DNA from: a virus
IMG/VR virus record: IMGVR_UViG_3300030098_001779
Span: 1-64,000 of that record
Reading direction: 5' to 3' (one strand)
DNA: 64,000 nt
The notes beneath the pieces are model-generated. The model was not told the origin of the DNA. It was given only the letters and a program-made list of their open reading frames with translations, and ran no database searches. Made by a program: the position numbers and the translations under genes. Positions 1,643-22,593 of this stretch are shown one piece after another; positions within the stretch are counted from its first letter, which is position 1; each line of letters opens with the position of its first letter.

Positions 1643-1818
1643 TGATTAAAGTATATTTTGAAACAGATAGTACATCAGAATTAGTGGCTACATTTGAACA
1701 TGAGAGTCATTACATAGCTTGTTTACCGATACTACAAGAATTGGCTAAACAAGAAAATTGGTTAACAGTATCAGAGTCGGTGGTTACTGAAAGACTTTTT
1801 CATAGTCAGGAGATATAA
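1642..1818 (+). CDS. Hypothetical protein (58 aa, not in ORF track)
   Basis: MIKVYFETDSTSELVATF...; GGAG RBS, TAATG coupling, fills the gap exactly. Confidence 0.7.
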   Translation: MIKVYFETDSTSELVATFEHESHYIACLPILQELAKQENWLTVSESVVTERLFHSQEI

Positions 1819-1820
1819 TA

Positions 1821-2273: not shown

Positions 2274-2274
2274 T

Positions 2275-2700: not shown

Positions 2701-2971
2701 AGTAAGAGATTATGAATTAAGAGTGTATGGAATATCTAATACAATCGGTTTAGAGAAAGATATAGATAATATGTCTGATGATGAGTGGGTAGATCTAGCA
2801 GAAGAATTTGGCTATATCTCAACACTAGATACTTTTATGCACAATGTAAATAAGGGAGTGATAGCAACTGATTATTCTGAATTAATATTTAGAGTAATAG
2901 CTTTTGGCTACCATAATAAAGAGGTTGATATAGTACCTAGTAATAAATTACACTATATGATAAGGGATTGA
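2675..2971 (+). CDS. Hypothetical protein (likely start 2693)
   Basis: GGAG upstream of the second ATG. Confidence 0.7.
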   Translation: MYGRLLMNEVRDYELRVYGISNTIGLEKDIDNMSDDEWVDLAEEFGYISTLDTFMHNVNKGVIATDYSELIFRVIAFGYHNKEVDIVPSNKLHYMIRD

Positions 2972-2997
2972 CATAGGTATTTTAAATATGATACAAT
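2968..2997 (+). promoter_or_regulatory. sigma70-type early promoter
   Basis: TTGACA-N18-TACAAT. Confidence 0.75.
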
Positions 2998-3024
2998 CTA
3001 ATTAACAACGAGTTCGGAGATAGA

Positions 3025-4065
3025 ATGAACAACGAACAATTTAAATTAGCAGAACGAAAACAATTTAGAGGGGATCTATCTAATATGGTAAATGTAGTCA
3101 ATGATTACATTAACATTGATAGACAAGATTTCTTGCAAAGCACATATACTGAATTTTCTCCTGATGAAGATTGGCTCAAATACTATGCCAAAAAAGAGGG
3201 AGAATTCTGTGCAATAGGTTGGTTAGCAATAGCCAAAGACATTGATCTACCTAGCTTTACTCATAACCTAAAACCAACAGGATATGTTTATAAAGGTAAA
3301 AATATACACACTAAATATGGGGAAGATGAGAATGGTAATTGGACTGCACTTGGACAAGAAGAAGTAGTCCATGAAGTAGATGAAAGAGCCTGTGAATGTG
3401 AATTACATACTCAACAAGATGGCGAAGATAGAGAAACTTGGGTAGAAGATGACTACTTAGATTTTGGTGTAACTTATGCAGATACAGATCATATACCTGT
3501 TCCTGAAGTAGATGATGATATATTTGGGGATACATATAAAGAATACTTTTTAAAATCTACTCTTGATTTAGATAGTGTATCTAGCAGAGCATATCAAGAT
3601 ACTAAAAGATTTATTAAAGATTTACTCTTGAATTATAGAGTACCAAATGTAATCTTAGAAGATATACAGTTGATAAATGATGATCCGACTTTTACACGAT
3701 TACATTCAATCTTGGGAGATTGTGGATCAGACTATGCTTATGATAAGTCATTCGCAGTATCCGAAGATATGTATGGTAAAAGAAGTGGAGAATGTATTCA
3801 CTTATTCAATGGTCATGGTTTAAAGATAGGTAGTTGGAAGAAGAATGTTGTAGACTATTTAAAGACTACTCAAAGTTTTGCTTGGGCAGACGAAACAGAA
3901 TTTGAGAAAATGATGGATTGTACATATCAAGCAAATGCAGTAAATTCTATTGATATGGTAAAAGCATTTTTAAATCTATTATTAACGAATGATGATTATG
4001 CAGATTACTATCTGCGTGGCGAAATGAGAACAGAAGTAGATGATGAACTAAGTGAAATCGTTTAG
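3025..4065 (+). CDS. Hypothetical acidic protein
   Basis: 346 aa ORF with RBS. Confidence 0.8.
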   Translation: MNNEQFKLAERKQFRGDLSNMVNVVNDYINIDRQDFLQSTYTEFSPDEDWLKYYAKKEGEFCAIGWLAIAKDIDLPSFTHNLKPTGYVYKGKNIHTKYGEDENGNWTALGQEEVVHEVDERACECELHTQQDGEDRETWVEDDYLDFGVTYADTDHIPVPEVDDDIFGDTYKEYFLKSTLDLDSVSSRAYQDTKRFIKDLLLNYRVPNVILEDIQLINDDPTFTRLHSILGDCGSDYAYDKSFAVSEDMYGKRSGECIHLFNGHGLKIGSWKKNVVDYLKTTQSFAWADETEFEKMMDCTYQANAVNSIDMVKAFLNLLLTNDDYADYYLRGEMRTEVDDELSEIV

Positions 4066-4068
4066 GAC

Positions 4069-4098
4069 TTGACATAGATATTTCATTTATGCTAATAT
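4069..4098 (+). promoter_or_regulatory. sigma70-type early promoter
   Basis: TTGACA-N18-TAATAT. Confidence 0.65.
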
Positions 4099-4125
4099 CT
4101 AATTAACGAAACTAATTAAGGAGAA

Positions 4126-4746
4126 ATGATTATGCCAAATTGGTGTGAAAATACAGTAGAAATATGGGGAGATGAAGAAGATATGAAAGAGTTTTATGAC
4201 TTCTTCGGTGGGCAAGATAAGTTACAAGAGAACTTTTCTTTTGAGATGATCAGTCCCATGCCACAAGAATTAGATGGGACACGCAGTCCACAAAAAATCG
4301 TACCTCAATATAAACTTGATTTATTTGAGAAATTTAAATACGAGATAGATCTTAATTCAACAGAGAAAGATTATCAAAGTCAAACAATGGTTTCCAAATC
4401 TGACGATAAATTCTTTTCTGAATTTGAAAGTGTTAATGAAATTGTAAAAGATTTCTTTTACGAATATGATGGTGCGATTAGCCGAGAAACATCTGATAGA
4501 CTTAAATCAGAATATGGACATGATAATTGGTATGATTGGAGAAACGAACATTGGGGAACTAAGTGGGACATCAAGGGAGATTGTGGAAATGATGTTGTTG
4601 ATGATGATACCTGTACATTAGTCTTTAATACTGCTTGGAGTCCACCTCAACCGATCATATATAAGTTACAGGAGATGTTTCCTAAACTACAAATATTTGG
4701 TGGGTATCTTGGAGAAGGATATGAATATGCAGGAGTATTTGAATGA
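4126..4746 (+). CDS. DUF1281-like / ferredoxin-like fold protein
   Basis: Family motifs MPNWCEN, WYDWRNEHWGTKWD, FNTAWSPP. Confidence 0.75.
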   Translation: MIMPNWCENTVEIWGDEEDMKEFYDFFGGQDKLQENFSFEMISPMPQELDGTRSPQKIVPQYKLDLFEKFKYEIDLNSTEKDYQSQTMVSKSDDKFFSEFESVNEIVKDFFYEYDGAISRETSDRLKSEYGHDNWYDWRNEHWGTKWDIKGDCGNDVVDDDTCTLVFNTAWSPPQPIIYKLQEMFPKLQIFGGYLGEGYEYAGVFE

Positions 4747-4848
4747 AACAAGATTTCTTTATAATACTCATGATGACGTTGTTCATAATGTTATTATGGA
4801 CTTTGACCGAAATGGTAAAAACATTATTTAATATAGTATCATAGAGTA

Positions 4849-4878
4849 TTGACATGGCTATATTAAAAATGTTACAAT
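4849..4878 (+). promoter_or_regulatory. sigma70-type early promoter
   Basis: TTGACA-N18-TACAAT. Confidence 0.75.
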
Positions 4879-4901
4879 ACATTTATAGTAAACAATATTG
4901 A

Positions 4902-5237
4902 TTGGAGAATATGAAAATCAAAGATATAGAAAATATAACTAACGAAATAGAAATCAGACTAACTGATTTAGGTTCTGAATTATTAGAACTTAGAACAATC
5001 AAATCTGATATAGAGAAAGTTATCAAAGATATTACTACTGAAATAGTTGGTATGTTAGAAACTATTGATAGTAAGTCATTTGAAACAGACGATCTCAAAG
5101 TTTCTAAACAAGATGTAAGTAGGACTGTTATTGATAACAATGTTGCTAAAGTTGTTATCCCTAAGAAATACTTAGATAAGATTATGAAAACAACTGAGTT
5201 TTCTAAAGTCTTAGTAAAAGAGGTTCAGAATGGATAG
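4902..5237 (+). CDS. Hypothetical coiled-coil protein
   Basis: ORF after promoter; likely start ATG 4911. Confidence 0.7.
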   Translation: MENMKIKDIENITNEIEIRLTDLGSELLELRTIKSDIEKVIKDITTEIVGMLETIDSKSFETDDLKVSKQDVSRTVIDNNVAKVVIPKKYLDKIMKTTEFSKVLVKEVQNG

Positions 5238-5418
5238 AGAAGATAAAATGGAGATTATCTTAGACTATTTTCAAGAGGGTTGGTATCAAGAAGATCCTGT
5301 TGATGAACTAAGAGCATTACATATGGGACATGAGAAACCACTTCATCAATGGTCGCATGATGAGATTGATAATGAGTATGAAATGGCAAAAGAATACTTA
5401 AAAGACATTGACGATTAA
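5230..5418 (+). CDS. Acidic hypothetical protein
   Basis: 62 aa, GAGG RBS. Confidence 0.7.
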   Translation: MDREDKMEIILDYFQEGWYQEDPVDELRALHMGHEKPLHQWSHDEIDNEYEMAKEYLKDIDD

Positions 5419-5491
5419 AAACGATATCTAGATACCATATGAGTCGCTAAAACGCTTGTAAGACGATTTAAATGGCTCATATGCAGTATTT

Positions 5492-5707
5492 TTGAGGGGT
5501 ATTCCTATGGAACATAGATATAGATTAGTGGTGGAGAAAACAACAGAATATCATTTTGATATTAGCAGTAATGATGTTGATGATATCCAAACTAAAGAAG
5601 AAATAATACAATTAATTATTAATAAGAAATATAATTTACCTAAGAAAGCATTTTCAGAAAAACTTAGAGTAATATCTTGTGATGATAGTCAAGAACTATC
5701 AATATGA
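5492..5707 (+). CDS. Hypothetical protein
   Basis: ORF in operon. Confidence 0.6.
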   Translation: MRGIPMEHRYRLVVEKTTEYHFDISSNDVDDIQTKEEIIQLIINKKYNLPKKAFSEKLRVISCDDSQELSI

Positions 5708-6038
5708 AAGAGGACGTATGAAAACAGAATTTAAATACTATGGTGTGCCAAAAGCGATCATGGATAAATTTGAGGGCAATCTTTTCGTTGCTAGTGATTT
5801 TATCAAAGTAGCAAAAGAATGTAACATGGCTTGGACTGAAAAACAGTATCATGCTATCAAAAAGAATATTAATCATACTGTAAATAATATTAAGAAAATT
5901 AAAGTATGGTCGGATATAAGAGATTTAGTTTACATATTCCAAGAGGGATATAATTACAGATCTACTGAAAAACATGGTGTGTTTGATTACTATCCATGCA
6001 GTAGAGATTTAAAATTCAACATGAAGAAAGGTAGATGA
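5679..6038 (+). CDS. Hypothetical protein (likely start 5718)
   Basis: GAGG RBS upstream of MKTEF. Confidence 0.65.
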   Translation: MMIVKNYQYERGRMKTEFKYYGVPKAIMDKFEGNLFVASDFIKVAKECNMAWTEKQYHAIKKNINHTVNNIKKIKVWSDIRDLVYIFQEGYNYRSTEKHGVFDYYPCSRDLKFNMKKGR

Positions 6039-6042
6039 TATC

Positions 6043-6207
6043 ATGGATAGATATGAATTAATAGATGAATTAGCACAATTACTAATTGATGAGCAGAATA
6101 TGGATTTATTTGACATAGTAGTACAGGGTTTGGATACTTGGTCAGACGCAGATATAAAATCCTTAGCAGATGATTATTCTTTAGTAATGAGTGTTGACAA
6201 TGCTTAG
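6043..6207 (+). CDS. Acidic hypothetical protein (54 aa, not in ORF track)
   Basis: MDRYELIDELAQLL...; fills intergenic gap. Confidence 0.6.
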   Translation: MDRYELIDELAQLLIDEQNMDLFDIVVQGLDTWSDADIKSLADDYSLVMSVDNA

Positions 6208-6415
6208 TGAAATATTGTATGATGAAAGTATCAACGATTTAGAAGGTATACTTAAAATGGAGAAATGGGAGAAAAGAGATAAGAAACGAAATACTAAAAA
6301 GAAGTTTAAAGACTTTAAAAATAACATAAAGTCAATAAGCGTTCTTGCAGAGATCTCAACTAAACCTGTTTCTAAAAAGAGGTATAGAAAAGATAAGGGT
6401 ATTGACAAGACATAA
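6191..6415 (+). CDS. Basic hypothetical protein (likely start 6257)
   Basis: Lies downstream of promoter TTGACA 6194-N18-TATGAT. Confidence 0.5.
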   Translation: MLTMLSEILYDESINDLEGILKMEKWEKRDKKRNTKKKFKDFKNNIKSISVLAEISTKPVSKKRYRKDKGIDKT

Positions 6416-6431
6416 TTGAATATGTTATAAT
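6402..6431 (+). promoter_or_regulatory. sigma70-type early promoter
   Basis: TTGACA-N18-TATAAT. Confidence 0.8.
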
Positions 6432-6464
6432 ACTTGTATAGCAACTAAAACAGGATATAAAACA

Positions 6465-6950
6465 ATGAGTTTTAATAAAGCACGAAAGACAATAGAATGG
6501 CACAATGAAGGACATCAATTATCACAATGGGCAAAAGCTGATTATGGATTTGATAGTCAACACAATAATTACGAGATTACAGGTAATGGTAATCCTACAA
6601 CTATTGAGGGTTTAGAAGAAGAATACAATAGAGTAGGGTGGAAACAATGTACTGAATGTGATGAGAACGAATTGACACCATACGTTGAATGGAGATTAGT
6701 ATCTGATGACTATGATGAAGATCAAGCTGATGATAGTGAGTGGAACTTAGAAACAGTAGGACATATTGGTAAAATATATCCTATGGCTCATTCAACTGAA
6801 TTAAGTTGTTTAAGTGGTGGTGGAAAACCATGCTTTCTATGTTTAGAAACCATTACAGGTAAATGGGCAGTTGATGAGGGTTGCCCACATATTCAACTAA
6901 AAGAAAATGGTAAATGGGTAACTAAGTATGACTTTAGTTACTATGGTTAA
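6465..6950 (+). CDS. Hypothetical protein with CxxC motifs
   Basis: 161 aa. Confidence 0.75.
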   Translation: MSFNKARKTIEWHNEGHQLSQWAKADYGFDSQHNNYEITGNGNPTTIEGLEEEYNRVGWKQCTECDENELTPYVEWRLVSDDYDEDQADDSEWNLETVGHIGKIYPMAHSTELSCLSGGGKPCFLCLETITGKWAVDEGCPHIQLKENGKWVTKYDFSYYG

Positions 6951-6964
6951 AAAGTTAATATTTT

Positions 6965-7206
6965 AAAAAAGGGTTTTGGAACATTTATGAAATGTTGATC
7001 AATGGATTAAATGTGAGTGGCAGAACTTTGGGTTGGTATCCCAAATTGCAGATTGGCAAACGAACTGACGAACAAGTGTTTGAGGTCGTGATGAGATCGT
7101 ATGTGTAGAGTATAAAGAAAGCGAGTGTTCAAAGCAGAACTTACTACTCACAGGACATCAGAGGACATAAAATCTCAATTCCTCTCTCTTACCAAAACCT
7201 TTTTTT
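6965..7206 (+). ncRNA. Candidate structured ncRNA (~240 nt)
   Basis: Gap with no ORF of 60 aa or more, closed by a 15-bp terminal stem AAAAAAGGGTTTTGG/CCAAAACCTTTTTTT; internal hairpins. Confidence 0.45.
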
Positions 7207-7212
7207 AAGGTA

Positions 7213-7242
7213 TTGACACAACAATATCAAATATGTTATCAT
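7213..7242 (+). promoter_or_regulatory. sigma70-type early promoter
   Basis: TTGACA-N18-TATCAT. Confidence 0.7.
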
Positions 7243-7270
7243 GAGGATAACAACGATTTAAGGAGATTAC

Positions 7271-7684
7271 ATGGCTTTAACATGGGACTTACGAAATGTA
7301 GACTTACCACAAGAAACTTTATATGTAAAAGAAGATAGTGGAGAAGAACATTTAAATCCAATCACTTGGGCAATCGTTTGGTCAACTATATTTATAGGAT
7401 TTAATGAAATAACTGAAAAGAATTTAAATGATTGGCACAGACGAATGAAACAATTAGAGATAAGTGGAATGGGATTGCTTGGAGAGAAAGATAGTGATGT
7501 AAAGCGTATGCCGAATTTAAGAGAACTCAAATTACACATTGGTTTAAAAACTAATGGTTCTTTGATTAAGAAAGGTTCAGCGTGGAATAGAGAATTAGTA
7601 AGACAAGTTAATCTTACTGCTGATACTATAATTAAACAAGAAAGAGAAGAACTAGCAGAAGTGGAGAAATCTGATGAAGATTGA
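7271..7684 (+). CDS. Hypothetical protein
   Basis: 137 aa, AGGAG RBS. Confidence 0.8.
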   Translation: MALTWDLRNVDLPQETLYVKEDSGEEHLNPITWAIVWSTIFIGFNEITEKNLNDWHRRMKQLEISGMGLLGEKDSDVKRMPNLRELKLHIGLKTNGSLIKKGSAWNRELVRQVNLTADTIIKQEREELAEVEKSDED

Positions 7685-8063
7685 TATAACAAGTGAAACA
7701 AGTGGATACATGAAGATTGGAGATTGGGTAGTCTATGTTGATGACAGTACAGGAGAGAAGATCATTCACTCTTGGATAGAAAATGATATTAAATATGATG
7801 CAACAGGACAACGAAGTGGAGAGATCTTAGAACACTCTAAGAAAGGTACTAGAACAGTTGATTATAGCGATCATGAAGTCATGGTTAAATTTAGAGAGAA
7901 TAGAAACTACATCAATGATATGCTTGGAGAACACAAGTACAGAGTAGGTAGTATTTTATATAACTCAAATGGTCATGAGGTCAGAGATCTCAATGGCAAT
8001 GCTATTTTTATTGATAGCCATTTTTTATCACATTATGACGATATAGAAATTGAGGTATCATAA
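7674..8063 (+). CDS. Hypothetical protein
   Basis: 129 aa, overlapping start. Confidence 0.75.
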   Translation: MKIDITSETSGYMKIGDWVVYVDDSTGEKIIHSWIENDIKYDATGQRSGEILEHSKKGTRTVDYSDHEVMVKFRENRNYINDMLGEHKYRVGSILYNSNGHEVRDLNGNAIFIDSHFLSHYDDIEIEVS

Positions 8064-8293
8064 TGGAGAGTTGGGAGAGAAAAGATACTAATAGACAACT
8101 TAAATTGCTTGGAGAAATTAACTTAGAATTTGAAGTGTTGAAAGAAACCAACGCTGAAAATATAAAAAGAGTAGAGGATTTCATAGAGGAATATAAAGAG
8201 GTCATAAATAAATTATCATATGTAGATATCTATAAACCTATTGAGAAAGATTTAAGAGATCTACTAGAAAAACATTTTCCATTAATGACTTGA
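8063..8293 (+). CDS. Hypothetical protein
   Basis: 76 aa, TAATG coupling. Confidence 0.7.
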   Translation: MESWERKDTNRQLKLLGEINLEFEVLKETNAENIKRVEDFIEEYKEVINKLSYVDIYKPIEKDLRDLLEKHFPLMT

Positions 8294-8319
8294 CATGGTT
8301 ATTTCTAATATGCTACAAT
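8290..8319 (+). promoter_or_regulatory. sigma70-type early promoter
   Basis: TTGACA-N18-TACAAT. Confidence 0.75.
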
Positions 8320-8347
8320 GTTTATAGAAACAATAACAGGAGAATAA

Positions 8348-8725
8348 ATGAATAGCTTAATTGCAAACTTATCCCCATATGCAGATGAAGAAGAAACTTA
8401 CGCTTTTGAATATGATATAACAGAGGAATTTACACAACATCTTAATAAAGTAGTAAATGTAAAAGGTAAGGATCTCACATGGGCAAGATTAACAGGTAGT
8501 AAAAAATTCTACTTAATTGAACCTTTGGATATCGTAAAACAATTAGTACCTATAAATACTGATTTTACTTACCGAATGGAGAAAGTGGGGAAGATGAAAT
8601 ATAAAGTAGCAAGTTCAAATCATGATAGTACAGAATATTATGATATAGAAATAACTGATGGTTTATCTGATGAAGAAATTGTGAGAATGGAATTATCAGA
8701 TGAACTATTGACAGAGCATTATTAA
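8348..8725 (+). CDS. Hypothetical protein
   Basis: 125 aa, AGGAG RBS. Confidence 0.75.
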   Translation: MNSLIANLSPYADEEETYAFEYDITEEFTQHLNKVVNVKGKDLTWARLTGSKKFYLIEPLDIVKQLVPINTDFTYRMEKVGKMKYKVASSNHDSTEYYDIEITDGLSDEEIVRMELSDELLTEHY

Positions 8726-8737
8726 ATATGCTATAAT
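8708..8737 (+). promoter_or_regulatory. sigma70-type early promoter
   Basis: TTGACA-N18-TATAAT. Confidence 0.8.
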
Positions 8738-8766
8738 GTAATTATCAGAACAATAACAGGAGAAAC

Positions 8767-9177
8767 ATGATAAAAGACATAGAGGTAAACACTAAAAGTT
8801 TAACCACTTTAATAGAAGATATCTATGACAGATTTGATGCTCTTGAAGATGATGAGGGTAAATCAAAATCTCAACAAGCATTGATTATGACTTCTTTCTT
8901 TGAAAATATACAGAAGAAGAAAGGATTATCTGATCATTTAGTTGAAAAGTTACAGAATGATAAATTCAAACTTACAAGACAGATAGATAAATTGAAGAAT
9001 GAAATCGCAGTATTGGAACAAGTCTACGATAATATTCAACATAAATATCTAAGCGTGGGAAGGGGAATAGATAGTATACATAGCGTATTAAAAAGATTAG
9101 CATTTGATGATAAACATCAAGTATTTAAAGATGATCTATTAGTAAAGCTATGGAAGATTAAATCAGATTGGTATTGA
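8767..9177 (+). CDS. Hypothetical coiled-coil protein
   Basis: 136 aa, AGGAG RBS. Confidence 0.75.
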   Translation: MIKDIEVNTKSLTTLIEDIYDRFDALEDDEGKSKSQQALIMTSFFENIQKKKGLSDHLVEKLQNDKFKLTRQIDKLKNEIAVLEQVYDNIQHKYLSVGRGIDSIHSVLKRLAFDDKHQVFKDDLLVKLWKIKSDWY

Positions 9178-9203
9178 CAAGCATATAATCAATATGATAT
9201 AAT
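9174..9203 (+). promoter_or_regulatory. sigma70-type early promoter
   Basis: TTGACA-N18-TATAAT. Confidence 0.8.
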
Positions 9204-9323
9204 CATTATGTAGGGTAAATAAAGAGATGTATGAAGTCTAATGGTATGTTAAAGAGCCAATTCACACTCATCTCACAGAACACTTTACAAGAAATAAACA
9301 ATAAATAAACTATTAAATGGAGT

Positions 9324-9806
9324 ATGATAATGGCAAATAAGCTAAAGATCAGAAAAGCTGATGATTGGCACTATAATCTAGGATTTGAGGTAAATTCTAT
9401 GAATACTGTACAGAAATCAGACAATAAGTACATAAAAGTAAGCGATTTGACTAATGGTACGATATTTAGAGGTAGAACAATTCCTAGTAGGATTGTATGC
9501 TTTTATAATATAAAACCACTAGAAATATCGTGGAAATATGATACTGCTAAAAAGCAAGAAGAATGTAGTGGGAGAAGTGATTATTGTTATCTAGTTAGAG
9601 ATGATTATTACTGTCCTAGTGGGTTCTATCTATGCTTACCTCATAATAATATAGTGGATTGGAGAGTATCAGGATTGGATCATTACTTTCTTTCCCCACA
9701 GGAATTTGAGGAAGATCACAAGATGACAATGCAAGAATATGGTGTTATTCAAAAAGAAGAACACATGAATTCTTACAATGCAGTTAAATCAAAACTAGGG
9801 TATTGA
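9324..9806 (+). CDS. Hypothetical protein
   Basis: 160 aa. Confidence 0.75.
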   Translation: MIMANKLKIRKADDWHYNLGFEVNSMNTVQKSDNKYIKVSDLTNGTIFRGRTIPSRIVCFYNIKPLEISWKYDTAKKQEECSGRSDYCYLVRDDYYCPSGFYLCLPHNNIVDWRVSGLDHYFLSPQEFEEDHKMTMQEYGVIQKEEHMNSYNAVKSKLGY

Positions 9807-9832
9807 CAATGGTACTTTGATTATGATATAAT
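9803..9832 (+). promoter_or_regulatory. sigma70-type early promoter
   Basis: TTGACA-N18-TATAAT. Confidence 0.8.
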
Positions 9833-9862
9833 ATAATTATAAAGATAAGTAAAGGATCAAAA

Positions 9863-9997
9863 GTGAGAACACTAGAAGAAATAAATAAAGGTTGTACTAA
9901 CTGTACAATACCTGAAATAATGTTATGTTCTAAATGCAGAGCAGAGCATAAAAGAACCTTAGCAAAGCTATATAGCCAAGCTAAAATATATAATTAA
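9863..9997 (+). CDS. Small Zn-finger-like peptide (44 aa, not in ORF track)
   Basis: GTG start after AAGGA; CTNC...CSKC. Confidence 0.55.
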   Translation: MRTLEEINKGCTNCTIPEIMLCSKCRAEHKRTLAKLYSQAKIYN

Positions 9998-10002
9998 TCC
10001 TG

Positions 10003-10045
10003 AATAGAGGGTTAGGTTTTATGGTTTTTTCCCTAACTCTCTATT
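10003..10045 (+). terminator. Hairpin at the convergence of the + and - early regions
   Basis: 14-bp stem AATAGAGGGTTAGG/CCTAACTCTCTATT. Confidence 0.6.
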
Positions 10046-10133
10046 ATATCATAAACCACCACCCCCTGTCAAGTACCCCTATATACGATATATCAATAAC
10101 TCCTATTAAATATATTGCTATATAAAAAATTTT

Positions 10134-10245
10134 AGGGAAGTAAGGAGGGGTATATATGGAAGGGAAGGAGAGGAAGAAGGGGTTAGGATACAGGAAGGAA
10201 GGGAGAGGAAAGGCGAGGAAAGGGAAAGGAAGGAAGGGGAGAAAG
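10134..10245 (+). repeat. Polypurine GGAAGG-like tract
   Basis: ~110 nt, mostly G/A, ending at a half site of the motif; a second tract at 10907-10954. Confidence 0.8.
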
Positions 10246-10274
10246 CCGCATAACTCCCACCCCTAGAGGACTGC

Positions 10275-10784
10275 TTAAAAACAGTCCCCTTTGGTGTCAT
10301 CAAAGATATTATTTTCTCCACTTATGTATCTCTGGTAATTCTTGTATGCTTGTTGTAATCCCCATTCATACTCCATACCCATTCCAAACGATCTTTTAAA
10401 CCAGATGTGGTCAAAGTCGTATACATCATCAACAACAATTTCACCAACTGTTGAAAACCATTGGGCAAGGTGTGGAGAAATGGCAAAATGTTGCATTACA
10501 TCACCTTGTTTCCACTCAATCAGCTCCTGTTTATATTCATCTTCTAATTGGTCTAGAGTCAAGACAGGATCAAAATTGTTCCTGAAGTCTTCCATGTCTT
10601 CGGAGGTGATAGCGTTTTGAGTAGCAATCCAAAGTTTTTCATGGGGTTCTTGTGTGTCATCTTGATACCAAATATCCATAACTTGATTTACAAGGTGATA
10701 AACATTATTATCAATCCATTTTTTAAAGTCTTGATCTTGTGCTAAATCTGTTTTTTGTTGTGTCATTTTAATGCCTTTCTGCAT
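10275..10784 (-). CDS. Hypothetical cassette protein (likely start 10766)
   Basis: Own promoter 10808-10837 (TTGACA-N18-TATTAT). Confidence 0.75.
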   Translation of the reverse strand: MQKGIKMTQQKTDLAQDQDFKKWIDNNVYHLVNQVMDIWYQDDTQEPHEKLWIATQNAITSEDMEDFRNNFDPVLTLDQLEDEYKQELIEWKQGDVMQHFAISPHLAQWFSTVGEIVVDDVYDFDHIWFKRSFGMGMEYEWGLQQAYKNYQRYISGENNIFDDTKGDCF

Positions 10785-10979
10785 TGGTTTATTTATTAAC
10801 TAATCTCATAATATCACATTTAACAGTTCTGTGTCAATATGTCAATATAGCGATATATCTATAACTCCACCTACTATCATTATATCATATATGGAAGGGG
10901 TGTGTCAAGAGGGAAGCAAGGGAAAAGGAGAGTAAAGGAAGGAAGGACAAGGGGTGCCATAACTCCCCAGAGGGGAGGA

Positions 10980-11249
10980 CTATGCCTCCCACTCTGCCTG
11001 TTCCTTTCTTGCATATTCAAGGTCATCCTCTAGAAGTTCTTCTAGTTGCTCCCATGAAATCCATCCCATGTAAACCATTTCTTGGATAAGAGCTGGTTTT
11101 AATCCATTTACTGGAACTAGATCTTCGTCATATTCTCCGATATGAGAAGTAATATCTACGAAGGGGTGATTTCCTTCAAATGAGTCAGCAAACTCAATTA
11201 GGTCGTTTATACTTATATTCAATTGTAGGTTTAAAAATTCCTTATTCAT
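10980..11249 (-). CDS. Acidic hypothetical cassette protein
   Basis: 89 aa; promoter 11292-11321. Confidence 0.75.
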   Translation of the reverse strand: MNKEFLNLQLNISINDLIEFADSFEGNHPFVDITSHIGEYDEDLVPVNGLKPALIQEMVYMGWISWEQLEELLEDDLEYARKEQAEWEA

Positions 11250-11407
11250 TTTTAATTCCCTTTTTGTTTTTTTATTTATTTCTTATATATAATAGTAGCA
11301 TATTTTTCCTAAATGTGTCAACAACTGATATATCGTATAACTCCAATAAAATGCGGGGGGACAGGGGAAAAATTGAAAAACCCTGTCCATGTGTCCCCTA
11401 GTTTAGT

Positions 11408-11638
11408 TTATATAGCCAATTTTCTTTGCTCTTTTTCTTCTTCCCAGATCACGCTTTCTACTGCATCTCTGAACCTTTGCTCATCAAATCGGGGATTATC
11501 TTCTCTGAAAACTTCACACATTGATTGGTATAAACTATCAGCATCAATGTAATGATATCCTTTTTCTCTAGCATCTCCCATAAATCTAATGCTTTTCTTC
11601 CACACTCCAACGAATTTTATGTAATCTTTCTTAGTCAT
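11408..11638 (-). CDS. Hypothetical cassette protein (MTKKDY...NPRFDEQRF)
   Basis: AGGAG RBS before ATG 11638; promoter 11668-11697. Confidence 0.75.
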   Translation of the reverse strand: MTKKDYIKFVGVWKKSIRFMGDAREKGYHYIDADSLYQSMCEVFREDNPRFDEQRFRDAVESVIWEEEKEQRKLAI

Positions 11639-11744
11639 TTTTCTCCTTTGTTTTTCCTTATATACATATAATAACATATTTCTTATAGGTAATGCAATAG
11701 TACCGCTACCATGATATATCACATAACTCCCAAAAAATTTAGTT

Positions 11745-12058
11745 CAACAGGCGTGGCAAGGGTGTCAGATGAATGAGAACTCACTTTCAAACTTAGCCTT
11801 ACGATTTGAGGTGTAATCGTGATACATCAGGCTCAACACTGGCTTTCCTTATACCATTCCTAGGATATGGTGGAAGCATCAGGTGATACATCTGGCTCAA
11901 CGTCATTGACCACAGGGATCTGCAAGATACTCTATCTCTATTCTTTTTCTGAACTCGCATTAGAAGTCCATCATGATTAAGTACAACTAATAATTTTCGT
12001 AACCCTTAAAGTTTCTGTTTAGGTTGCGATCCTAAGAGCCTACTAACCACGCCTACTA
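11745..12058 (-). ncRNA. Candidate structured ncRNA (~310 nt) occupying a cassette slot
   Basis: Promoter 12156-12185 with no ORF of 60 aa or more downstream; 12-bp terminal stem; two 19-nt direct repeats. Confidence 0.55.
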
Positions 12059-12214
12059 TATTGTTAAACACAAGATTGATGATCGGTTGTTATAGATCAT
12101 TTCTGTCCACATTCCCTACTTCGTTGTATTTCTACTTCCTCAACCTTGTAATATAAGTATACCATATTTAATAAACCCATGTCAATACTGATATATCATA
12201 ACTCCCCACCCCTA

Positions 12215-12244
12215 TTGACTCAACTATTTTAAAAATGCTATAAT
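12215..12244 (+). promoter_or_regulatory. sigma70-type promoter of the inverted cassette
   Basis: TTGACT-N18-TATAAT. Confidence 0.75.
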
Positions 12245-12282
12245 ATTAGAGTAAATAAAAAACAAGTAGATAAGGACTACTA

Positions 12283-12531
12283 ATGAATTCAATAGAACCA
12301 AATGATATCAAGAAGGGTGATATCGGATACTTAAAAAATGGGTGGAAGTTTGAAATGATGGATAACAAGAAGGGTAATATCAGAATGGCAATGGTACATG
12401 GCGACTTCCCTGAAATGGGTAGCATCTATACCCATGATATAGCCTTCATTGAAAAAGATGGCGATGATGTTCCTGTTAATGCTTCACGCTATGAGAAGCA
12501 AACAACTATGATTAGAAATTTAGGTTTCTAG
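12283..12531 (+). CDS. Hypothetical protein (inverted cassette)
   Basis: 82 aa, AAGGA RBS. Confidence 0.75.
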   Translation: MNSIEPNDIKKGDIGYLKNGWKFEMMDNKKGNIRMAMVHGDFPEMGSIYTHDIAFIEKDGDDVPVNASRYEKQTTMIRNLGF

Positions 12532-12621
12532 TCTATGGAATATATATTACTCATAGGAATTTTTCTATGGTGGCTCTCTTTATAAGAGCCACTATGGAGT
12601 TATGTGATATATCAGCACACC

Positions 12622-12843
12622 CTAGTTAATGGGTATATAGAAATCCATATTTCCAGAGTTCTCCTCACCTCCCACAATACTGATGAAATCCCTTTGCGTG
12701 GGATCCTCAACATCAAAAGGGTGTGGCTCTACCCAGTAGCAATAACCACAGATAACCACTTCATCACCCTGTACATCAGCCACCAATCCCCAAGATGATA
12801 TTTGATTGATTATTAAGTTGCAGAAGTTACATTCTTTATCCAT
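12622..12843 (-). CDS. Small Zn-ribbon-like protein
   Basis: CNFC...CGYC; AGGAG RBS. Confidence 0.7.
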   Translation of the reverse strand: MDKECNFCNLIINQISSWGLVADVQGDEVVICGYCYWVEPHPFDVEDPTQRDFISIVGGEENSGNMDFYIPIN

Positions 12844-12991
12844 TTTTTTAAATCTCCTTAAATCGTTTTGCCTGTATTTTTTACAGAGCTCAATTTAATA
12901 ATACCAAAGTTAAAATAAATGTAAAGAGTGGCGGCACCCTGATATATCATATAACTCCCCAATATATATCATTTCAACTGGGGATTAGATT

Positions 12992-13240
12992 TTACCAATC
13001 TATAGTATTAATACCGAATTCAGCATATCCTTTTTCAATATTTTCATCAGGATCATCTTCATGATCTAAACTTATTGGCAGTACAACTGCAGAGTCTGGT
13101 ATTGGTTGTCCATAATCATCAGTAACATCAGACGCATTTAAACAATCTAAAAGATTTTTTTCATCTATATCTTCTTTAGACCATAACGCTAAATTCTGTA
13201 ATTCATGTTCAACTTGTGCATTTTTTATTTCATTTAACAT
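12992..13240 (-). CDS. Acidic hypothetical cassette protein
   Basis: AAGGAGGTG RBS; promoter 13265-13292. Confidence 0.75.
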   Translation of the reverse strand: MLNEIKNAQVEHELQNLALWSKEDIDEKNLLDCLNASDVTDDYGQPIPDSAVVLPISLDHEDDPDENIEKGYAEFGINTIDW

Positions 13241-13338
13241 TTTTTTATCACCTCCTTTAATATAAGTATATCATAGGTAGGTAATATGTCAAAGACTGAT
13301 ATATCATATAACTCCCCGAAAAAATCGGGGGGTAGTGG

Positions 13339-13560
13339 CTAGTCCATGTATTGATTAGTTACATGCCCTAAAGGACTATCAGTAGTTAATCCTTGAACAC
13401 CTTCATCAAATGCGATGAAAACTTTTTTCCAAAGTTGCCCACTATCAGAGTAGAAATATTCATCTCCCTCTGCTTTAATGCCATTTTCTATTATGGCTTG
13501 TGCTAAATCTCTGTATCCTTCATTGATTGCCATTTCTTTATTTATTTCTGCGTAAGACAT
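13339..13560 (-). CDS. Hypothetical cassette protein
   Basis: AGGAG RBS. Confidence 0.75.
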   Translation of the reverse strand: MSYAEINKEMAINEGYRDLAQAIIENGIKAEGDEYFYSDSGQLWKKVFIAFDEGVQGLTTDSPLGHVTNQYMD

Positions 13561-13755
13561 TTTTTTCTCCTATTGGTTGTTTATTTAACTTACATTTATA
13601 AGTATACCAGAATATAAAAATTATACAATAGCAATTTTATACCGATATATCATATAACTCCAAAAAAATGGGGTGGTGGCTGAAATAATCCCGATCCTAT
13701 GTTTCTGATGATCGGTTATAGTGTCTTCCACTTTTTCAGCCATTACCCTTTTATA

Positions 13756-13884
13756 TTATTGTTGAGGTATATTTTCTTCTTCTAAAAGTTTTCTCCACTG
13801 CTCTCTGATTTTTGCTTGTTCAGGTGTCAAGATTTTTTCATCTGTTCCCTCGTTTAGCAAATCTTCAAAACTTTTCTCTTTCAT
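13756..13884 (-). CDS. Small protein (42 aa, not in ORF track)
   Basis: MKEKSFEDLL...; ATGA overlap with the upstream ORF. Confidence 0.55.
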   Translation of the reverse strand: MKEKSFEDLLNEGTDEKILTPEQAKIREQWRKLLEEENIPQQ

Positions 13885-14012
13885 TTTTTATTCCTTTTTA
13901 ACTCGTTTTTATATTTTTGTATTGCCTCTTTTTTAGAGTAATAGTAATAAATTCGTCTTCCTATATCTCCGAAAATTACTAACGCTCCTTCTCTGTTTTT
14001 TTCTATAATCAT
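13881..14012 (-). CDS. Small protein (43 aa, not in ORF track)
   Basis: MIIEKNREGALVIFG...; AAGGA RBS. Confidence 0.6.
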   Translation of the reverse strand: MIIEKNREGALVIFGDIGRRIYYYYSKKEAIQKYKNELKRNKK

Positions 14013-14022
14013 TTTTTCCTTT

Positions 14023-14181
14023 CTATCTTCTTGGGTTCTGTCGTTCCAATGTCTGTTTTACTATTAATCTTTTAATTTGGTTTTTAGTTAATCCTTTTGG
14101 CTTTGCTTTTGAACCTTTCACAACTGTGATACATTCTCCATTCTTGCCACTTGGTTTTACTTCTAATTTTATTCTAGCCAT
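14023..14181 (-). CDS. Small basic protein (52 aa, not in ORF track)
   Basis: MARIKLEVKPSG...; AAGGA RBS, promoter 14214-14243. Confidence 0.6.
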   Translation of the reverse strand: MARIKLEVKPSGKNGECITVVKGSKAKPKGLTKNQIKRLIVKQTLERQNPRR

Positions 14182-14340
14182 TTTTTTCCTTTGTTTATTT
14201 ATTTGTTAATATAATAATAGCATATTTTCTTTAGGTGTGTCAACAAGGTATGTCCACATGATATATCATATAACTCCCACTTGGGTGGTGGTGGCAGTAG
14301 AGAAAAAATGAAAAAACTCTATCTGCCCCACTCTAGTTTA

Positions 14341-14583
14341 TTAAATAGCTTGTGCTAGATTTAATACTACCACTTCGGTTCTCTTTGACATTTCAAAGTG
14401 GTGGTCGCAACATATTAAACTATCACTTATTTCCTTTGGGTTTCGTTTAAAGATATCTGTGATTGAGAATTTCTTCTTATCAGGACAATCAAACCATTGT
14501 CGCCAATATCCTTTGTCTTTGTCTATTTCATAGTGAACATTCTCATTCTGCTCACCAAACTTAAATGTACCTTTAACCTTCAT
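14341..14583 (-). CDS. Hypothetical protein
   Basis: Promoter 14618-14647. Confidence 0.7.
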   Translation of the reverse strand: MKVKGTFKFGEQNENVHYEIDKDKGYWRQWFDCPDKKKFSITDIFKRNPKEISDSLICCDHHFEMSKRTEVVVLNLAQAI

Positions 14584-14650
14584 CTTTATTCCTTTGCTAG
14601 TTTTCTTATCTACTTATATTATATCATATATAGTGGTGGCTTGTCAAGGG

Positions 14651-14851
14651 TTAATACTCATCGTCCCATGCTTTCTCAAACATCATCTCATTAACCTCAT
14701 CTAGGTTCACAAACAACTCTCTCCATAGGTTTTCAGTTTTCCTACTCTCCCAACCCTCATTCCGAGTGTCATTGAGTTCCTTCACTAAGTCAATAACCAT
14801 AGTGTCAAATATAGTTTTTCTATATTGTTTAGTTTCTTTACAGTAATTCAT
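14651..14851 (-). CDS. Hypothetical protein
   Basis: Promoter 14881-14910. Confidence 0.7.
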   Translation of the reverse strand: MNYCKETKQYRKTIFDTMVIDLVKELNDTRNEGWESRKTENLWRELFVNLDEVNEMMFEKAWDDEY

Positions 14852-15432
14852 TTTTACCCCTTATAATAGTTACTAATAACATTATATCACATTTGATATA
14901 GCCATGTCAACAATAACCCCCTATTGTGCTATTTTAGGTGCTAGTTTTAGCTAATAAAGGGGTTCTTAAAAAAAATACTAATTTTTTAAAAAATGGCTTT
15001 TTGAAGGGTGGGGGGTCTAATATTTGAAAAAACGGAAAGGGTCCCATGTACAGGGCTAATTTTTTTAAAAATAAAAATTTGTAGAAAACGGCGTTTAGCT
15101 CTATGCTAGGTTGGCGTTTTAAATAAAATGTATTATTGCAGATACTATTATAGCTAACAATACTGCTAATCCTATTCTAGTCACTATACTTGAGCTAAAT
15201 AGTAAACAACTAATTCGTTGGATGCTTTGTAACTGGGGTGGTAGTAATCATCTTCAATGTGGATTACATCTTCTAATCTATAGGATTCTGATCTTGTGAA
15301 TAATGCTTTTAAGAATTTAGTCAATTAAACCTCCTTTACTAATTCTTTCTATGTATATTATATCATATCAAGGGGTGGGATTTCAATATGTTGTATTACA
15401 TAAATGTTAACAATGTATTAAGTATAGGAGGG

Positions 15433-15462
15433 TTGACTCAGCTATCAAGGTTGTGCTATAAT
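15433..15462 (+). promoter_or_regulatory. sigma70-type promoter, divergent from one at ~15357-15386
   Basis: TTGACT-N18-TATAAT. Confidence 0.65.
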
Positions 15463-15576
15463 ATACTATATATAATATATATAATAGAAAAGGATAGTAT
15501 AGTATGATTAGAAATATATTTATTACTTTAGTAGTATATCTAACATTTATCTGGTTAGTCTTAGCAGGACTACTGA

Positions 15577-15801
15577 TTGAGTAGATTAGTGCTACTATTG
15601 TTCCTAGTGTCAGTATGCATATTATCACTGCCCGACCTAGTTAACTTAGAAAAGCACTCAGATGATTTTGCACAGATGGCATGGAATAGGATCAAGCGTG
15701 ATATATTTCGTGAGTCGCCTTCGGCTCCTCAAAAGTATGTGGGATTGCCGCCGCCGACCATTACCCGTGACTCCGTGACACAAGTGATAGGAAATTCTTA
15801 A
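15577..15801 (+). CDS. Possible small membrane/secreted protein
   Basis: TTG start after AGGA; hydrophobic N-terminus. Confidence 0.4.
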   Translation: MSRLVLLLFLVSVCILSLPDLVNLEKHSDDFAQMAWNRIKRDIFRESPSAPQKYVGLPPPTITRDSVTQVIGNS

Positions 15802-15815
15802 AAAGATAGTATAAT
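15790..15815 (+). promoter_or_regulatory. Putative phage late promoter
   Basis: GGAAA-N13-AGTATAAT, recurring before late operons. Confidence 0.6.
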
Positions 15816-15820
15816 AGTAT

Positions 15821-16243
15821 ATGTATACATACAAATGCACAGTTACAAAAATTATTGATGGTGACACAATCGATGTGGACATCAATTTAGGATTTGACGT
15901 TGTTCTGACTAAACAGAGAATAAGGTTGATGGGTATTGACACGCCAGAATCTAGAACTCGTAACTTAGAAGAAAAAGAACGAGGACTATTATCTAAAGCA
16001 TATATGGAAAACAAATGCCCTGTAGGTTCTAGTATTACTTTAAAATCTCTAGACAGAGGTAAGTTTGGTAGAATATTAGGAGAGATATGGGAAGCAGATG
16101 TAGATTCCACGACTGTTGAACCTTTAAACAAGAGAATGATTACAGATGGGTTTGCAGTAGAATACTATGGTGGTAGTAAAGATGAACTTGAAGCCAAGCA
16201 TATGAAAAATAAAGAAATACTAATCGCAAAAGGATTACTATAA
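15821..16243 (+). CDS. Thermonuclease (SNase-family) nuclease
   Basis: IIDGDTIDV, RIRLMGIDTPESR, GKFGRILG motifs. Confidence 0.9.
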   Translation: MYTYKCTVTKIIDGDTIDVDINLGFDVVLTKQRIRLMGIDTPESRTRNLEEKERGLLSKAYMENKCPVGSSITLKSLDRGKFGRILGEIWEADVDSTTVEPLNKRMITDGFAVEYYGGSKDELEAKHMKNKEILIAKGLL

Positions 16244-16246
16244 ACG

Positions 16247-19200
16247 ATGCCAAATATTGAAGCCTTGACAGAAAAACTAATGAAAGATCCTGACTTCAAA
16301 CCAAAAGCAGGCAAGACTAAACTTGAAACTGCTCAAGAAGAAGCAACTCAGAGAATGAATCAGCATAGAAAAAATGCTGCTGCATTAGCTTTAGCTGTAG
16401 AAAATAAAACTGCTATTGAAGCTCTTAGTGACCATGCTGAAAAACAAAAAGAATTAAAAGAAGTAGATGAGATGGTATTTGGTGTTCCTAGTGAGAGTGA
16501 TAGAGAAGCTATGGAACGTGAATTAGATTTAATAGAATTAAATGTTGATACAGATATAAAATTAGCTCCTCCACCAAAAAATACAAGTAGTCAAGTAAAA
16601 GAAGAATTAAAAACTATAATTGATTTACATTTGGCTACAAAAGAAGATACGGAAAACTTTGAGTTTGAAATTGCAAAACCTGCAAAATTACAAGATTTAG
16701 ATATAACAAAGGCATTTACAAATTTAGCTAAAGAATTAGGTTTAGGTGATGAAATCACAAAAGATAAATTAAAGCCTATAATAAGAGAAACTGCTATGAT
16801 AGTCATGAACTTAAAATATCAGTTTAACAGACCTAGACCTTTTCAATTAATGGATTTTCATGAAGTAGAATTTGAACCTGCAGATTTTAAATCTTCTAAA
16901 ACCCCTGCTTATCCTTCAGGACATTCTTTTCAAGGAACTTTAATAGGTCAAATATTATCTGATCTTTTCCCTATTTACGAAGAACAATTTAAAAAACTTG
17001 GAAAGTCTATTGGGGATAATCGTGTAATATTTGGAGTACATTACCCTTCTGATAATTATGCTGGAGTAGAACTAGCAAAACAAGTGTATCCATTTGTAAA
17101 CTTTGATAAGTTAGGCTTTCAAGCTATTCCACAAGAATCAGAACCTTTAGAAAAAGAGGACAATCCTAGAATACCTAGAAAAAAAGGACAGCCTGCAAAA
17201 TCAGATAAACACTCTGATTTATATACAGATGAAGATCCAAAAGACACAATTCAAGGATTAGGGTTTAAAGATGTAAAAACAGCAGAGGCATCTGTGAATA
17301 AAATAAAAAAATCTGGTAGAACTCATGCTCATAAGATACAAGCTGCTGTTGCTATGGAACAAAGAGCAAAAGCTGCTGGTAAAACTACAGCCGCAGGCGT
17401 ATATAGAAAATATATAAATGAGATGAAAGAAAAAACACAGGAGAAAGAGATTGAAAAACATTCTGAAGAACATCACACTGTGGAACATACAGCTGAAGAA
17501 AAACCATTTAACTATGATGACGCAATAGAATCCATAGGAACTCAAATAGAACAGATTAAAAATAAAATAAAAACTGGTGATTATGGCATAGAAAAAGCTG
17601 ACATGCCTCTAGAAAAAGCTACTCCTTTAGAAGTTCTTACAACTGGAGCTGCACTTGCTGCTGGTGGAGTCGCATTGTGGGATTTATACCAAACTTTTAA
17701 AAATAATAAAAGATTAACTAGAGATCAAAGAATTGAATTAGACGAAGCATTAGAGGCAAACGAAGAAGAAATAAAAAATATTCAAGTAAACTTTAATGAA
17801 GATCAAGAATTACCAGATTTAGAAGACACAGACAATGTTGCTGAAATAGTTGAAGCTGCTAAAGATCCAGAAAAAGCAGAAGATGTTGTAAAAAAAGTTA
17901 GGAAGAAAAGATGGGATGCAGGAAAAACTGCAGAAGAAAAACAGAAAATAAAAGAAGAAAGAGATAGGAGAAGAGCAGAGAGAGAAGAGAGAGGGGAGAC
18001 ATCACCTTTAGCTCCTGTTGGAGAACTTACTCCTGAACTAGAAATAGACTCTGTGCTTAGACAAGCAGAAGATTCTGGATTAATAGATCACATACATGAA
18101 CAAATAGAAGGGCATGGTAAAGATAACCCTTTCCATACTAAAGAAGATACTGAGAAAGCTATAAGAGCTAAATATAAAACACCTGAAAAGATGAAAGAAT
18201 ATTTAGGTAAACAACACGGTAAATTTGAAACATTTAAAGCTAAAGCTGAACAACAAAAAGAAAAAGATGATCAAAAAGCTGCTGAAAATCAACAGAAGAA
18301 TGAAGCTAATAGTGCTAAATGGGACATAGATGAAAATGTAAGTTCTGAAGATGCTGCTAAATCTATAAGAGAAATGTTACATCACCAAGAAAAATATGGT
18401 GGTAAGGGTCAAATGAGTTCAGCTCAAAGAGCTCACATTAAAGAACAAATAGATGAAGCTAAAGCTAGACTATCTCCAGATGATACAGAAAAATTAGCTA
18501 GAGAGATTCAAGATCATAATGATGAAAAAAAGAAACCTAAGAGTGAACAAGACACATCAAAAACTTTCGGTAGTTCAGATTATGAACAAAATGTTTTAGG
18601 TCAGACTCCTAAAAAAGAAGATGAGCCTGAAGAAGATAAAGACTACGAAGGTAAAGATATACCACCAGAAAGAAGAGTATATGGTGATCCTCCTGAAGAC
18701 ACTAATGTAAAAACTTATCAAGGACCAGAAGGTGGCTCTTTTTACGATAGAGATGAAGCTGAATCTAAAGAAACAGGTGATGATAGTGCCACAGGTGCAA
18801 AAGGTGAAGATGGAAAAGCAGTTCCACCACCAGTAAGAGAAGGTGATAAAGTTTCTCAAGATGCTCCAGTAGGTCAAAAAGCTGAACAATGGGGTAAATC
18901 TAAAAAAGGATTTATAGCAAGATTTCTAGAAGCTGAAAAAGCAGGATATGAAGCAGCAAAGAAAGAAGATAAAAAAGGTGACTTAAAAGATATATTTAGG
19001 CGTGATATTAAAGATGCAGTTACAGGAAAAAGTTTAGTAGACCAACTAACTTACTCTATAGCTAGATCAAGAGGATATGATAAAAAATCTGCAGAAACTG
19101 CAAAACTGTCAAATCAGGTCAGAGCATTAGTGAGAGCTACACAAATAGGTAAAGTAATTGCTAGAAAGACTCCGGGTTTTGAAGCCGAAGCAAGAGTCGC

Positions 19201-22247: not shown

Positions 22248-22257
22248 GGAGAAAACG

Positions 22258-22578: not shown

Positions 22579-22593
22579 ATAGGGAGCAACTAA

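Follow-up and report, generated by a model that had tools for sequence, protein, structure and literature searches.

In the T4-type phages, small orphan open reading frames (ORFans) are separated from each other by promoter early stem-loops (PeSLs), which are composites of a terminator and a promoter; a deletion leaves one chimeric element behind and the crossover points vary (PMC2839356, PMC4122927). Here we describe a comparable arrangement in a stretch of viral DNA of 64,000 nt (the window), which corresponds to bases 1-64000 of the 82,411-bp IMG/VR record IMGVR_UViG_3300030098_001779, rated by CheckV as complete (genome G000). Between positions 10087 and 14277 an array of small cassettes, each with its own promoter, is punctuated by ten copies of a conserved box. 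As in the PeSLs, the array junctions combine a stem-loop and a sigma70-like early promoter and are placed between small ORFans of a hyperplastic region, and close relatives differ by insertion, deletion, replacement or displacement of cassettes at these elements. There are also clear differences. The PeSLs were described in T4-like myoviruses whereas the phage carrying the array is not T4-like, and an invariant 18-bp near-palindromic box occupies a position that in PeSLs is generally just AT-rich. This box occurs in only a part of the early region, can be inverted and can stand without a promoter. Moreover, excised mini-circles are a trait of PeSLs, whereas the array is known from genome comparison and from contigs. 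On balance we lean towards regarding the array as a set of PeSL-like composite regulatory junctions to which an operator for a putative DNA-binding protein has been added.

Two other systems bear comparison with the array. Integrons also have single-gene cassettes split by a recurring site, with a content and an order that vary among relatives. However, integron cassettes are promoterless and depend on a common promoter whereas each array cassette has its own, the attC site is an imperfect inverted repeat of 57-141 bp conserved in structure rather than in sequence whereas the array site is an 18-bp box, and no IntI-type integrase is encoded beside the array. The stoperators of the cluster A mycobacteriophages (PMC9283540) are many short, asymmetric, bipartite intergenic sites, and the array box likewise sits where transcription from the upstream gene arrives. 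Stoperators are, however, spread genome-wide in temperate phages, in which they serve the immunity repressor, whereas the array sites are confined to 4-6 kb of genomes with no visible lysogeny genes and their orientation is not strictly tied to transcription.

The array genes (10-16 kb) are on the minus strand, as indicated by the GC skew and by the sequence. On this strand the box is GGAGTTAT-N0-2-GATATATC (the pattern can also be written GATATATC-N0-2-ATAACTCC) and, read straight from the sequence, it consists of GGA followed by a 7-1-7 near-palindrome, GTTATAT-G-ATATATC. The pattern has ten exact matches at 10087-14277, nine on one strand and one inverted (12596), and was never obtained in 100 dinucleotide-preserving shuffles. 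For the palindrome GATATATC, 1.86 occurrences would be expected in the window and 11 are present, 10 of them inside the array. In the whole genome the full box is present as the 10 array copies with none outside, and the 12 copies of GGAGTTAT all belong to the array, being the 10 boxes and two half sites (10250-10257 and 10959-10966). The preliminary description of this DNA had reported the ten copies, the two half sites and the absence of the motif from the rest of the window, and these three observations stand, the last of them now for the complete genome. The copies vary at two central positions only or by 1-2 nt in length (three copies in G000), and no degenerate copies were found in G000 or in its relative G001 with up to four substitutions allowed, including those with 2-3. 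Around the junctions conservation is confined to the invariant 18-mer, with flanks of at most 0.6 bit per position, and the box is the longest identical stretch within each junction. Operators of the Fur-family 7-1-7 type are AT-rich inverted repeats with G/C at their ends, a design that suits a dimeric regulator, and the box is built in the same way. Nevertheless, to our knowledge its sequence matches none of the Fur, PerR and Zur consensus sequences, and the GGA extends it on one side only.

Scans with the exact pattern found the multi-copy box in G001, in the IMG/VR fragments G002 and G003 and in seven marine metagenome contigs. G001 is a complete relative of 81,307 bp, 75-80% identical, with 12 box copies, all within 21600-27414. 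The two genomes are collinear along most of their length with 66-87% DNA identity, and the boxes span 4.2 kb in G000 and 5.8 kb in G001. In addition, the box is present in many independent metagenomes. Its occurrence in identical form in lineages of only 66-87% identity, together with the all-or-none nature of the copies, requires either sequence-specific selection or strong homogenisation. Single-copy matches in viral, metagenome and bacterial sequences look like chance; among the matches listed in the scan of bacterial and archaeal genomes there were single chance copies in unrelated taxa, with no host regulon or prophage. When the array was compared at the nucleotide level with 50,697 phage records there were no matches, and the search for relatives through a 1032-amino acid (aa) protein with a PAP2 domain recovered G001 alone. 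In the literature the motif strings were found in unrelated papers only, and nothing comparable is reported in that on phiEco32-like phages. The phage carrying the array is an uncultured, marine, lytic-looking phage of about 82 kb, with a family A DNA polymerase (28% identical to the closest match from a cultured phage), a capsid match of the SU10 type, a Phage_tube_2 match and a sigma factor resembling the extracytoplasmic function (ECF) type.

Open reading frames (ORFs) were clustered across contigs to define cassette families, designated F00, F01 and so on. The cassette order in G000 is F18, F00, F03, x, F04, F01 (inverted), a non-coding RNA (ncRNA) cassette, F12, y and F06, and that in G001 is F04, F25, F03, F00 with F45, F12, an ORF-less cassette, F48 with F18, the ncRNA cassette, F01 (forward) and F06. 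In G003 and in the contigs L044 and L095, F00 comes after the ncRNA cassette, and the second gene of F00 differs among lineages. Cassettes of the relatives are thus reordered, inverted, inserted, deleted or replaced, with junctions that are often exactly at the box. The ncRNA cassette aligns between G000 and G001 from the outer edge of one of its boxes to the outer edge of the other and is bordered on either side by unrelated neighbours. L053 lacks a 373-bp cassette of G001 (24252-24606) as an exact box-to-box indel; the one box that is left has on its left and right the sequences that flank the two G001 boxes on their outer sides. Likewise, cassette x (12992-13240) is carried by the window and lacking in L074. 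G002, G003 and L044 have another sequence in place of cassette y, and this exchange is bounded on the left by the 3' edge of the box and on the right by a half site. This comparison of relatives had been proposed in the preliminary description as the way to check the array, and its outcome is positive: the analogy with PeSLs holds because relatives gain, lose and reorder cassettes at the junctions.

Not all exchanges are at the box, and some crossovers fall within promoters or within cassettes. In the relocation of F00 between G000 and G003 the crossover is 32 nt past the box, within the spacer of the promoter. Moreover, the box-less region at 1-10 kb is also rearranged with respect to G001, and there 43% of the alignment ends, as opposed to 12% expected for random positions, lie no more than 30 nt from a strong promoter. 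The box is dispensable for shuffling because this box-less region shuffles and because the F00 crossover lies in a promoter spacer; hence the early region as a whole, boxed or not, recombines at its regulatory junctions. In the array the alignment end points are only about 3-fold enriched at boxes because many alignments end through divergence, and individual junctions were inspected instead. No joints between cassettes were seen in contigs of four public runs, although such contigs are unable to show rare circles; Logan contigs often end at boxes, which at a depth of about 3x is not evidence.

The unit on the minus strand is composed of a stem-loop, the box, a spacer of 3-26 nt, a sigma70-type promoter and a Shine-Dalgarno (SD) sequence with 1-3 small ORFs or about 430 nt of non-coding sequence, and this confirms the order that had been noticed earlier. 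At nine of the 10 boxes a strong promoter with a TG-extended -10 is found on the GATATATC side. The boxed promoters, at 3-26 nt past the box, score 10-12 of 12. Promoters of the same class are found without the box at eleven positions on the plus strand (1326-9832) and at three on the minus strand (14647, 14910 and 15386), so that the strong promoters of the 1-10 kb region do lack the motif, as first described. The distances from the box to the -35 cluster at 3-6, 14-16 and 25-26 nt, and over 23 promoter families the spacing has a period of 10-10.5 nt (R=0.72, Rayleigh p about 7e-6). Hairpins are located directly 5' of most boxes. Of nine stretches folded, seven had a hairpin that was beaten or equalled by only 0-11 of 200 shuffles, and those at 13658-13720 and 11727-11790 had one no better than the shuffles. 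Few of the junction hairpins qualify as canonical intrinsic terminators, most of them being without a U-tract. In the box-less early promoters of G001 (contig L285; 5528, 6149, 9369, 9933, 11903 and 13180) and of the contigs L287 and L288 (5869-9934), (T)AGGGTA is placed directly 5' of TTGAC, and the G-rich spacer of the long boxed junctions is this GGGTA element, common to early promoters including the box-less ones. G-rich and CCACCAC blocks near the boxes were looked for and are not enriched in the array.

These features can be accommodated in a model in which the array is the boxed part of an early hyperplastic ORFan region and each cassette would be an autonomous unit with a promoter, one or more small genes or an ncRNA, and a stem-loop. 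Stem-loop, box and sigma70 promoter would together make up one composite regulatory element of the PeSL kind. Because such junctions are repeated and similar, recombination between them may delete, insert, swap and relocate cassettes. Such recombination would most simply be driven by homology or microhomology, through the RecA-like (54049-54990) and RuvC-like (56417-56884) proteins of the phage. As for the box, its most likely role is that of an operator recognised by a single sequence-specific DNA-binding protein of phage or host origin, which could control the boxed early promoters jointly, by shut-off, delay or insulation, and apart from the box-less ones. Judged from the sequence, three features of the box, namely its near-palindrome, its confinement to a single block of early promoters and its stepped distance to the -35, point to a putative DNA-binding protein that acts on promoters. 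The earlier proposal of a regulon bound by one protein thus fits the invariance, the near-palindrome and the stepped spacing of the box, but the binding protein that it calls for was not found.

Several observations weigh against an operator of this kind. No box-binding protein could be named; the candidates amount to two sub-threshold Pfam hints, one to RHH_8 (7271-7684) and one to a YlxM-type HTH (8063-8293). In L074 and L091 the promoters of F03 and F04 are preceded by an oppositely oriented box, an inversion also seen in G001, and at inverted boxes the -35 spacing is broad, at 4-9 nt from the GGAG edge. Boxes are also found without a promoter, at the convergent junction 12596 and at the array end in G001 (21600). 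Neither the inverted nor the promoter-less boxes are explained by a simple face-specific activator, and the conserved GGA outside the palindrome is not explained by a symmetric dimer. In addition, GGGTA occurs in the long spacers and also in box-less promoters, and therefore the stepped spacing may partly reflect two inherited types of junction. Part of the uniformity of the copies could be due to gene conversion (concerted evolution). The first of the two hints concerns an early protein of 137 aa (MALTWD...GLKTN, plus strand), which is represented in marine metagenomes, Tara among them, by 73 clusters of homologues; AlphaFold gave a confident model of it (pLDDT 85), for which Foldseek found no fold match in the PDB.

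The exactness of some exchanges could suggest that the box is the target of a dedicated enzyme, for example a virion-associated type IB topoisomerase (TopoIB)-like fusion or an unrecognised, novel nuclease, which would excise, integrate and flip cassettes and junction modules as in integrons. An exact box-to-box indel, homology that stops at the box edges, a box inverted between homologous flanks and an invariant 18-bp site are all consistent with this. Moreover, a poly(A)-polymerase/HD fusion of 1105 aa, encoded just past the window at 64095-67412 of G000, has a C-terminal half that resembles TopoIB, with the fold of tyrosine recombinases. Its match to Pfam Phage_integrase (E 2e-4) is under the curated cut-off, its best PDB sequence matches, to poxvirus and Deinococcus TopoIB, are weak (E about 0.09), and this domain is encoded 50 kb from the array. 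Poxvirus-type TopoIB cleaves at (C/T)CCTT and the box contains no CCCTT, nor does it have the paired arms and spacer of the core sites of tyrosine or serine recombinases, or an attC architecture. No integrase, resolvase, transposase or homing endonuclease (HNH/GIY-YIG) was found among about 90 scanned ORFs. The earlier statement that no recombinase is visible in the window is thus correct for site-specific recombinases, although the general RecA-like and RuvC-like proteins are encoded there. As box-less early junctions shuffle too, other crossovers fall within promoters or cassettes, and the inversion of a box in situ between homologous flanks exchanges a junction module of about 40-47 bp rather than the bare 18-mer, the integron-like reading of the preliminary description is not upheld; the lack of joints in contigs covering the array adds a little to this. 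We consider a dedicated enzyme unlikely. If true, it would mean that a lytic phage possesses an integron-like engine diversifying its host-takeover genes.

The uniformity of the box might also be that of a selfish or neutral repeat, a short junction module spread and homogenised by gene conversion without any function. Copies that are all-or-none, a junction module replaced as a unit in either orientation and one lineage with its own version of the box agree with such a repeat, but it would hardly keep an identical sequence in lineages of 66-87% identity and in many independent metagenomes, a stepped distance to the -35 and a place at orthologous positions despite promoter loss, and it seems to us improbable. 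A role in RNA, as part of a terminator, as a processing site or as a mini-ORF with its own SD and AUG (GGAG-N4-AUG), is the least credible of these readings and can be considered remote: the GGAG is often the 3' arm of the preceding hairpin and in the consensus it is followed by ATG, but the box is upstream of promoters, this ATG is gone in the AG, AC and 17-nt variants, the box works in both orientations relative to the genes, and it is the whole near-palindrome that is conserved. Somewhat better placed, though still doubtful, is a roadblock or insulator resembling a stoperator, at which a box-bound protein would halt RNA polymerase reading through, isolate the cassettes and later silence the array. 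The box is always just past the hairpin of a cassette, few of these hairpins could terminate on their own by the criteria for intrinsic terminators, box 10852 occupies about +5 to +22 relative to the tandem promoter upstream of it, and at the convergent junction 12596 the box is kept without a promoter and oriented with the plus strand gene. Stoperators are similarly asymmetric, occupy many intergenic positions and are bound by a two-domain monomer (PMC9283540). The orientation relative to the oncoming gene is, however, reversed at three L074 junctions and at some in G001, the boxes lie within 4-6 kb and not genome-wide, and no repressor or lysogeny module was found in the phage. Further candidates were discarded as misfits in sequence, spacing or distribution: an ECF-sigma promoter in the box, an antisense promoter, sites for IHF, NtcA, LexA, CRP, NrdR or Zur, iterons and T5-type nick sites.

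Followed along the minus strand, the array begins with a box of the form GGAGTTAT-AT-GATATATC (14260-14277, minus), upstream of the three-gene F00 cassette (13756-14181, minus), which encodes proteins of 52, 43 and 42 aa of families F00 and F27 with no Pfam or PHROG match; its sigma70-type promoter, TTGACA/TATTAT and TG-extended, is 16 nt past the box (14214-14243, minus). Three boxes of consensus form come next, all on the minus strand. The box at 13644-13661 is followed after 15 nt by the promoter TTGTAT/TG-TATACT (13601-13628, minus) and by the 73-aa ORFan F03 (13339-13560, minus). That at 13298-13315 has the promoter TTGACA/TATACT 5 nt past it (13265-13292, minus) and precedes the 82-aa ORFan of cassette x (minus strand), missing in L074, where a single box is present instead. 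The one at 12941-12958 has the promoter TTTACA/TATTAT 15 nt past it (12898-12925, minus) and precedes the 73-aa Cys-rich ORFan F04 (12622-12843, minus). The sole inverted box, a GT variant (12596-12613, plus), comes after the hairpin of a plus strand cassette, at a convergent junction with no adjoining promoter. This inverted cassette encodes the 82-aa ORFan F01 (12283-12531, plus), which in G001 is forward and has changed sides with respect to the ncRNA cassette, and its promoter (12215-12244, plus) is 9 nt from the GGAG edge of the next box. This box, a 16-nt length variant (12190-12205, minus), lies between divergent promoters (12185-12156 on the minus and 12215-12244 on the plus strand), the former being that of the ncRNA cassette, 4 nt past the box.

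The non-coding cassette (11731-12155, minus), a presumed ncRNA with box-to-box homology to G001, has at its 3' end a GT variant of the box (11713-11730, minus), with the promoter TTGCAT/TATTAT 15 nt past it (11668-11697, minus) and then the 76-aa ORFan F12 (11408-11638, minus). An AC variant (11327-11344, minus) with a promoter 5 nt past it (11292-11321, minus) precedes the 89-aa ORFan of cassette y (10980-11249, minus), which has unrelated sequence in its place in G002, G003 and L044. At the hairpin past this ORF is the half site GGAGTTAT(G) at 10959-10966 (minus), the right junction of the cassette replacement in these relatives. A 17-nt variant of the box (10852-10868, minus) lies between tandem promoters (10908-10879 and 10837-10808), the second of which is downstream of it (minus strand), ahead of the 169-aa ORFan F06 (10275-10784, minus), for which the homologue search recovered close homologues only. 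Past F06 the other half site GGAGTTAT(G) (10250-10257, minus) marks the start of a CT-rich tract, which is followed by the last box, also a 17-nt variant (10087-10103, minus), and by a final promoter 14 nt past it (10043-10072, minus) with no ORF downstream. The tract between half site and last box (10104-10249, minus) is polypyrimidine and YCCTT-rich, and a second polypyrimidine tract (10869-10958, minus) includes the promoter 10908-10879. The YCCTT density is 10 and 7 per 500 nt at 10104-10249 and 10869-10958, respectively, against a genome mean of 1.2, and reaches 13 per 500 nt at about 79500-80500; syntenic tracts are present in G001. YCCTT is also the cleavage motif of poxvirus-type TopoIB, and a link with the TopoIB-like domain encoded in this genome is conceivable. 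The final promoter and another consensus promoter (9803-9832, plus) face each other about 200 bp apart with no convincing ORF between them, and may be an antisense pair or a case of transcriptional interference. Adjoining the upstream end of the early array, a homologue of staphylococcal nuclease (SNase) is encoded at 15821-16243 on the plus strand.

Searches of the cassette proteins against Pfam, PHROGs and NCBIfam gave no matches (ten proteins in the case of Pfam and PHROGs). Rfam, applied to 9000-16500, had no match for the non-coding cassette at 11731-12155, and a sub-threshold PrrB/RsmZ match inside the 89-aa ORF was discarded. Contigs from a single marine metatranscriptome cover F06, F18 and the ncRNA and F00 cassettes, with a depth of 109 for the ncRNA contig (11945-12145) against 5-18 for the other cassettes. 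As these data are assembled contigs and not reads, they indicate presence in an RNA library only and give no transcript ends; the depth suggests that the 11731-12155 cassette is an abundant ncRNA. The G001 cassette at 24252-24606 (L015:4252-4606) has its own promoter and no conserved ORF, and at its 3' end there are 3-4 tandem copies of a repeat of about 16 nt, ATTCTTTACTGGACAC.

More distant relatives were fetched with the 137-aa early protein as anchor. A closer lineage, L288 (IMGVR_UViG_3300037586_001921), has its own version of the box, GGAGTTAT-A-GATATC, with a palindrome shorter by one TA step; both full copies seen before the contig end (11987-12002 and 12747-12762) have an adjoining polypyrimidine tract. 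Two distant relatives have instead other, longer conserved junction elements between their small early genes: in L289 (9086-11500) a composite of about 100 bp with two hairpins and a GCTTTCATTTCACTACGCCGC core, and in L292 (52-2726) three TGATAG(T) repeats placed after a terminator. Junction sequences therefore seem to vary from lineage to lineage, with two copies as the basis in L288. In L287 and L288 (3548-4565) the sequence AGGAGAACGCATGA, composed of an SD, 5 nt and ATG, is repeated 4-5 times as a conserved translation-start region common to several small genes.

Until now, T4-like phages were the only ones for which junctions of the PeSL type had been described. The finding of the same logic in an unrelated, abundant and uncultured lineage of marine phages suggests a general route to the diversification of host-takeover genes, and the other conserved junction elements of the distant relatives support this generality. 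The box marks a discrete subset of the early promoters, and its 18 bp can serve as bait for finding the regulator. Moreover, boxed and box-less junctions within one genome are a natural experiment that could separate what regulation needs from what recombination needs.

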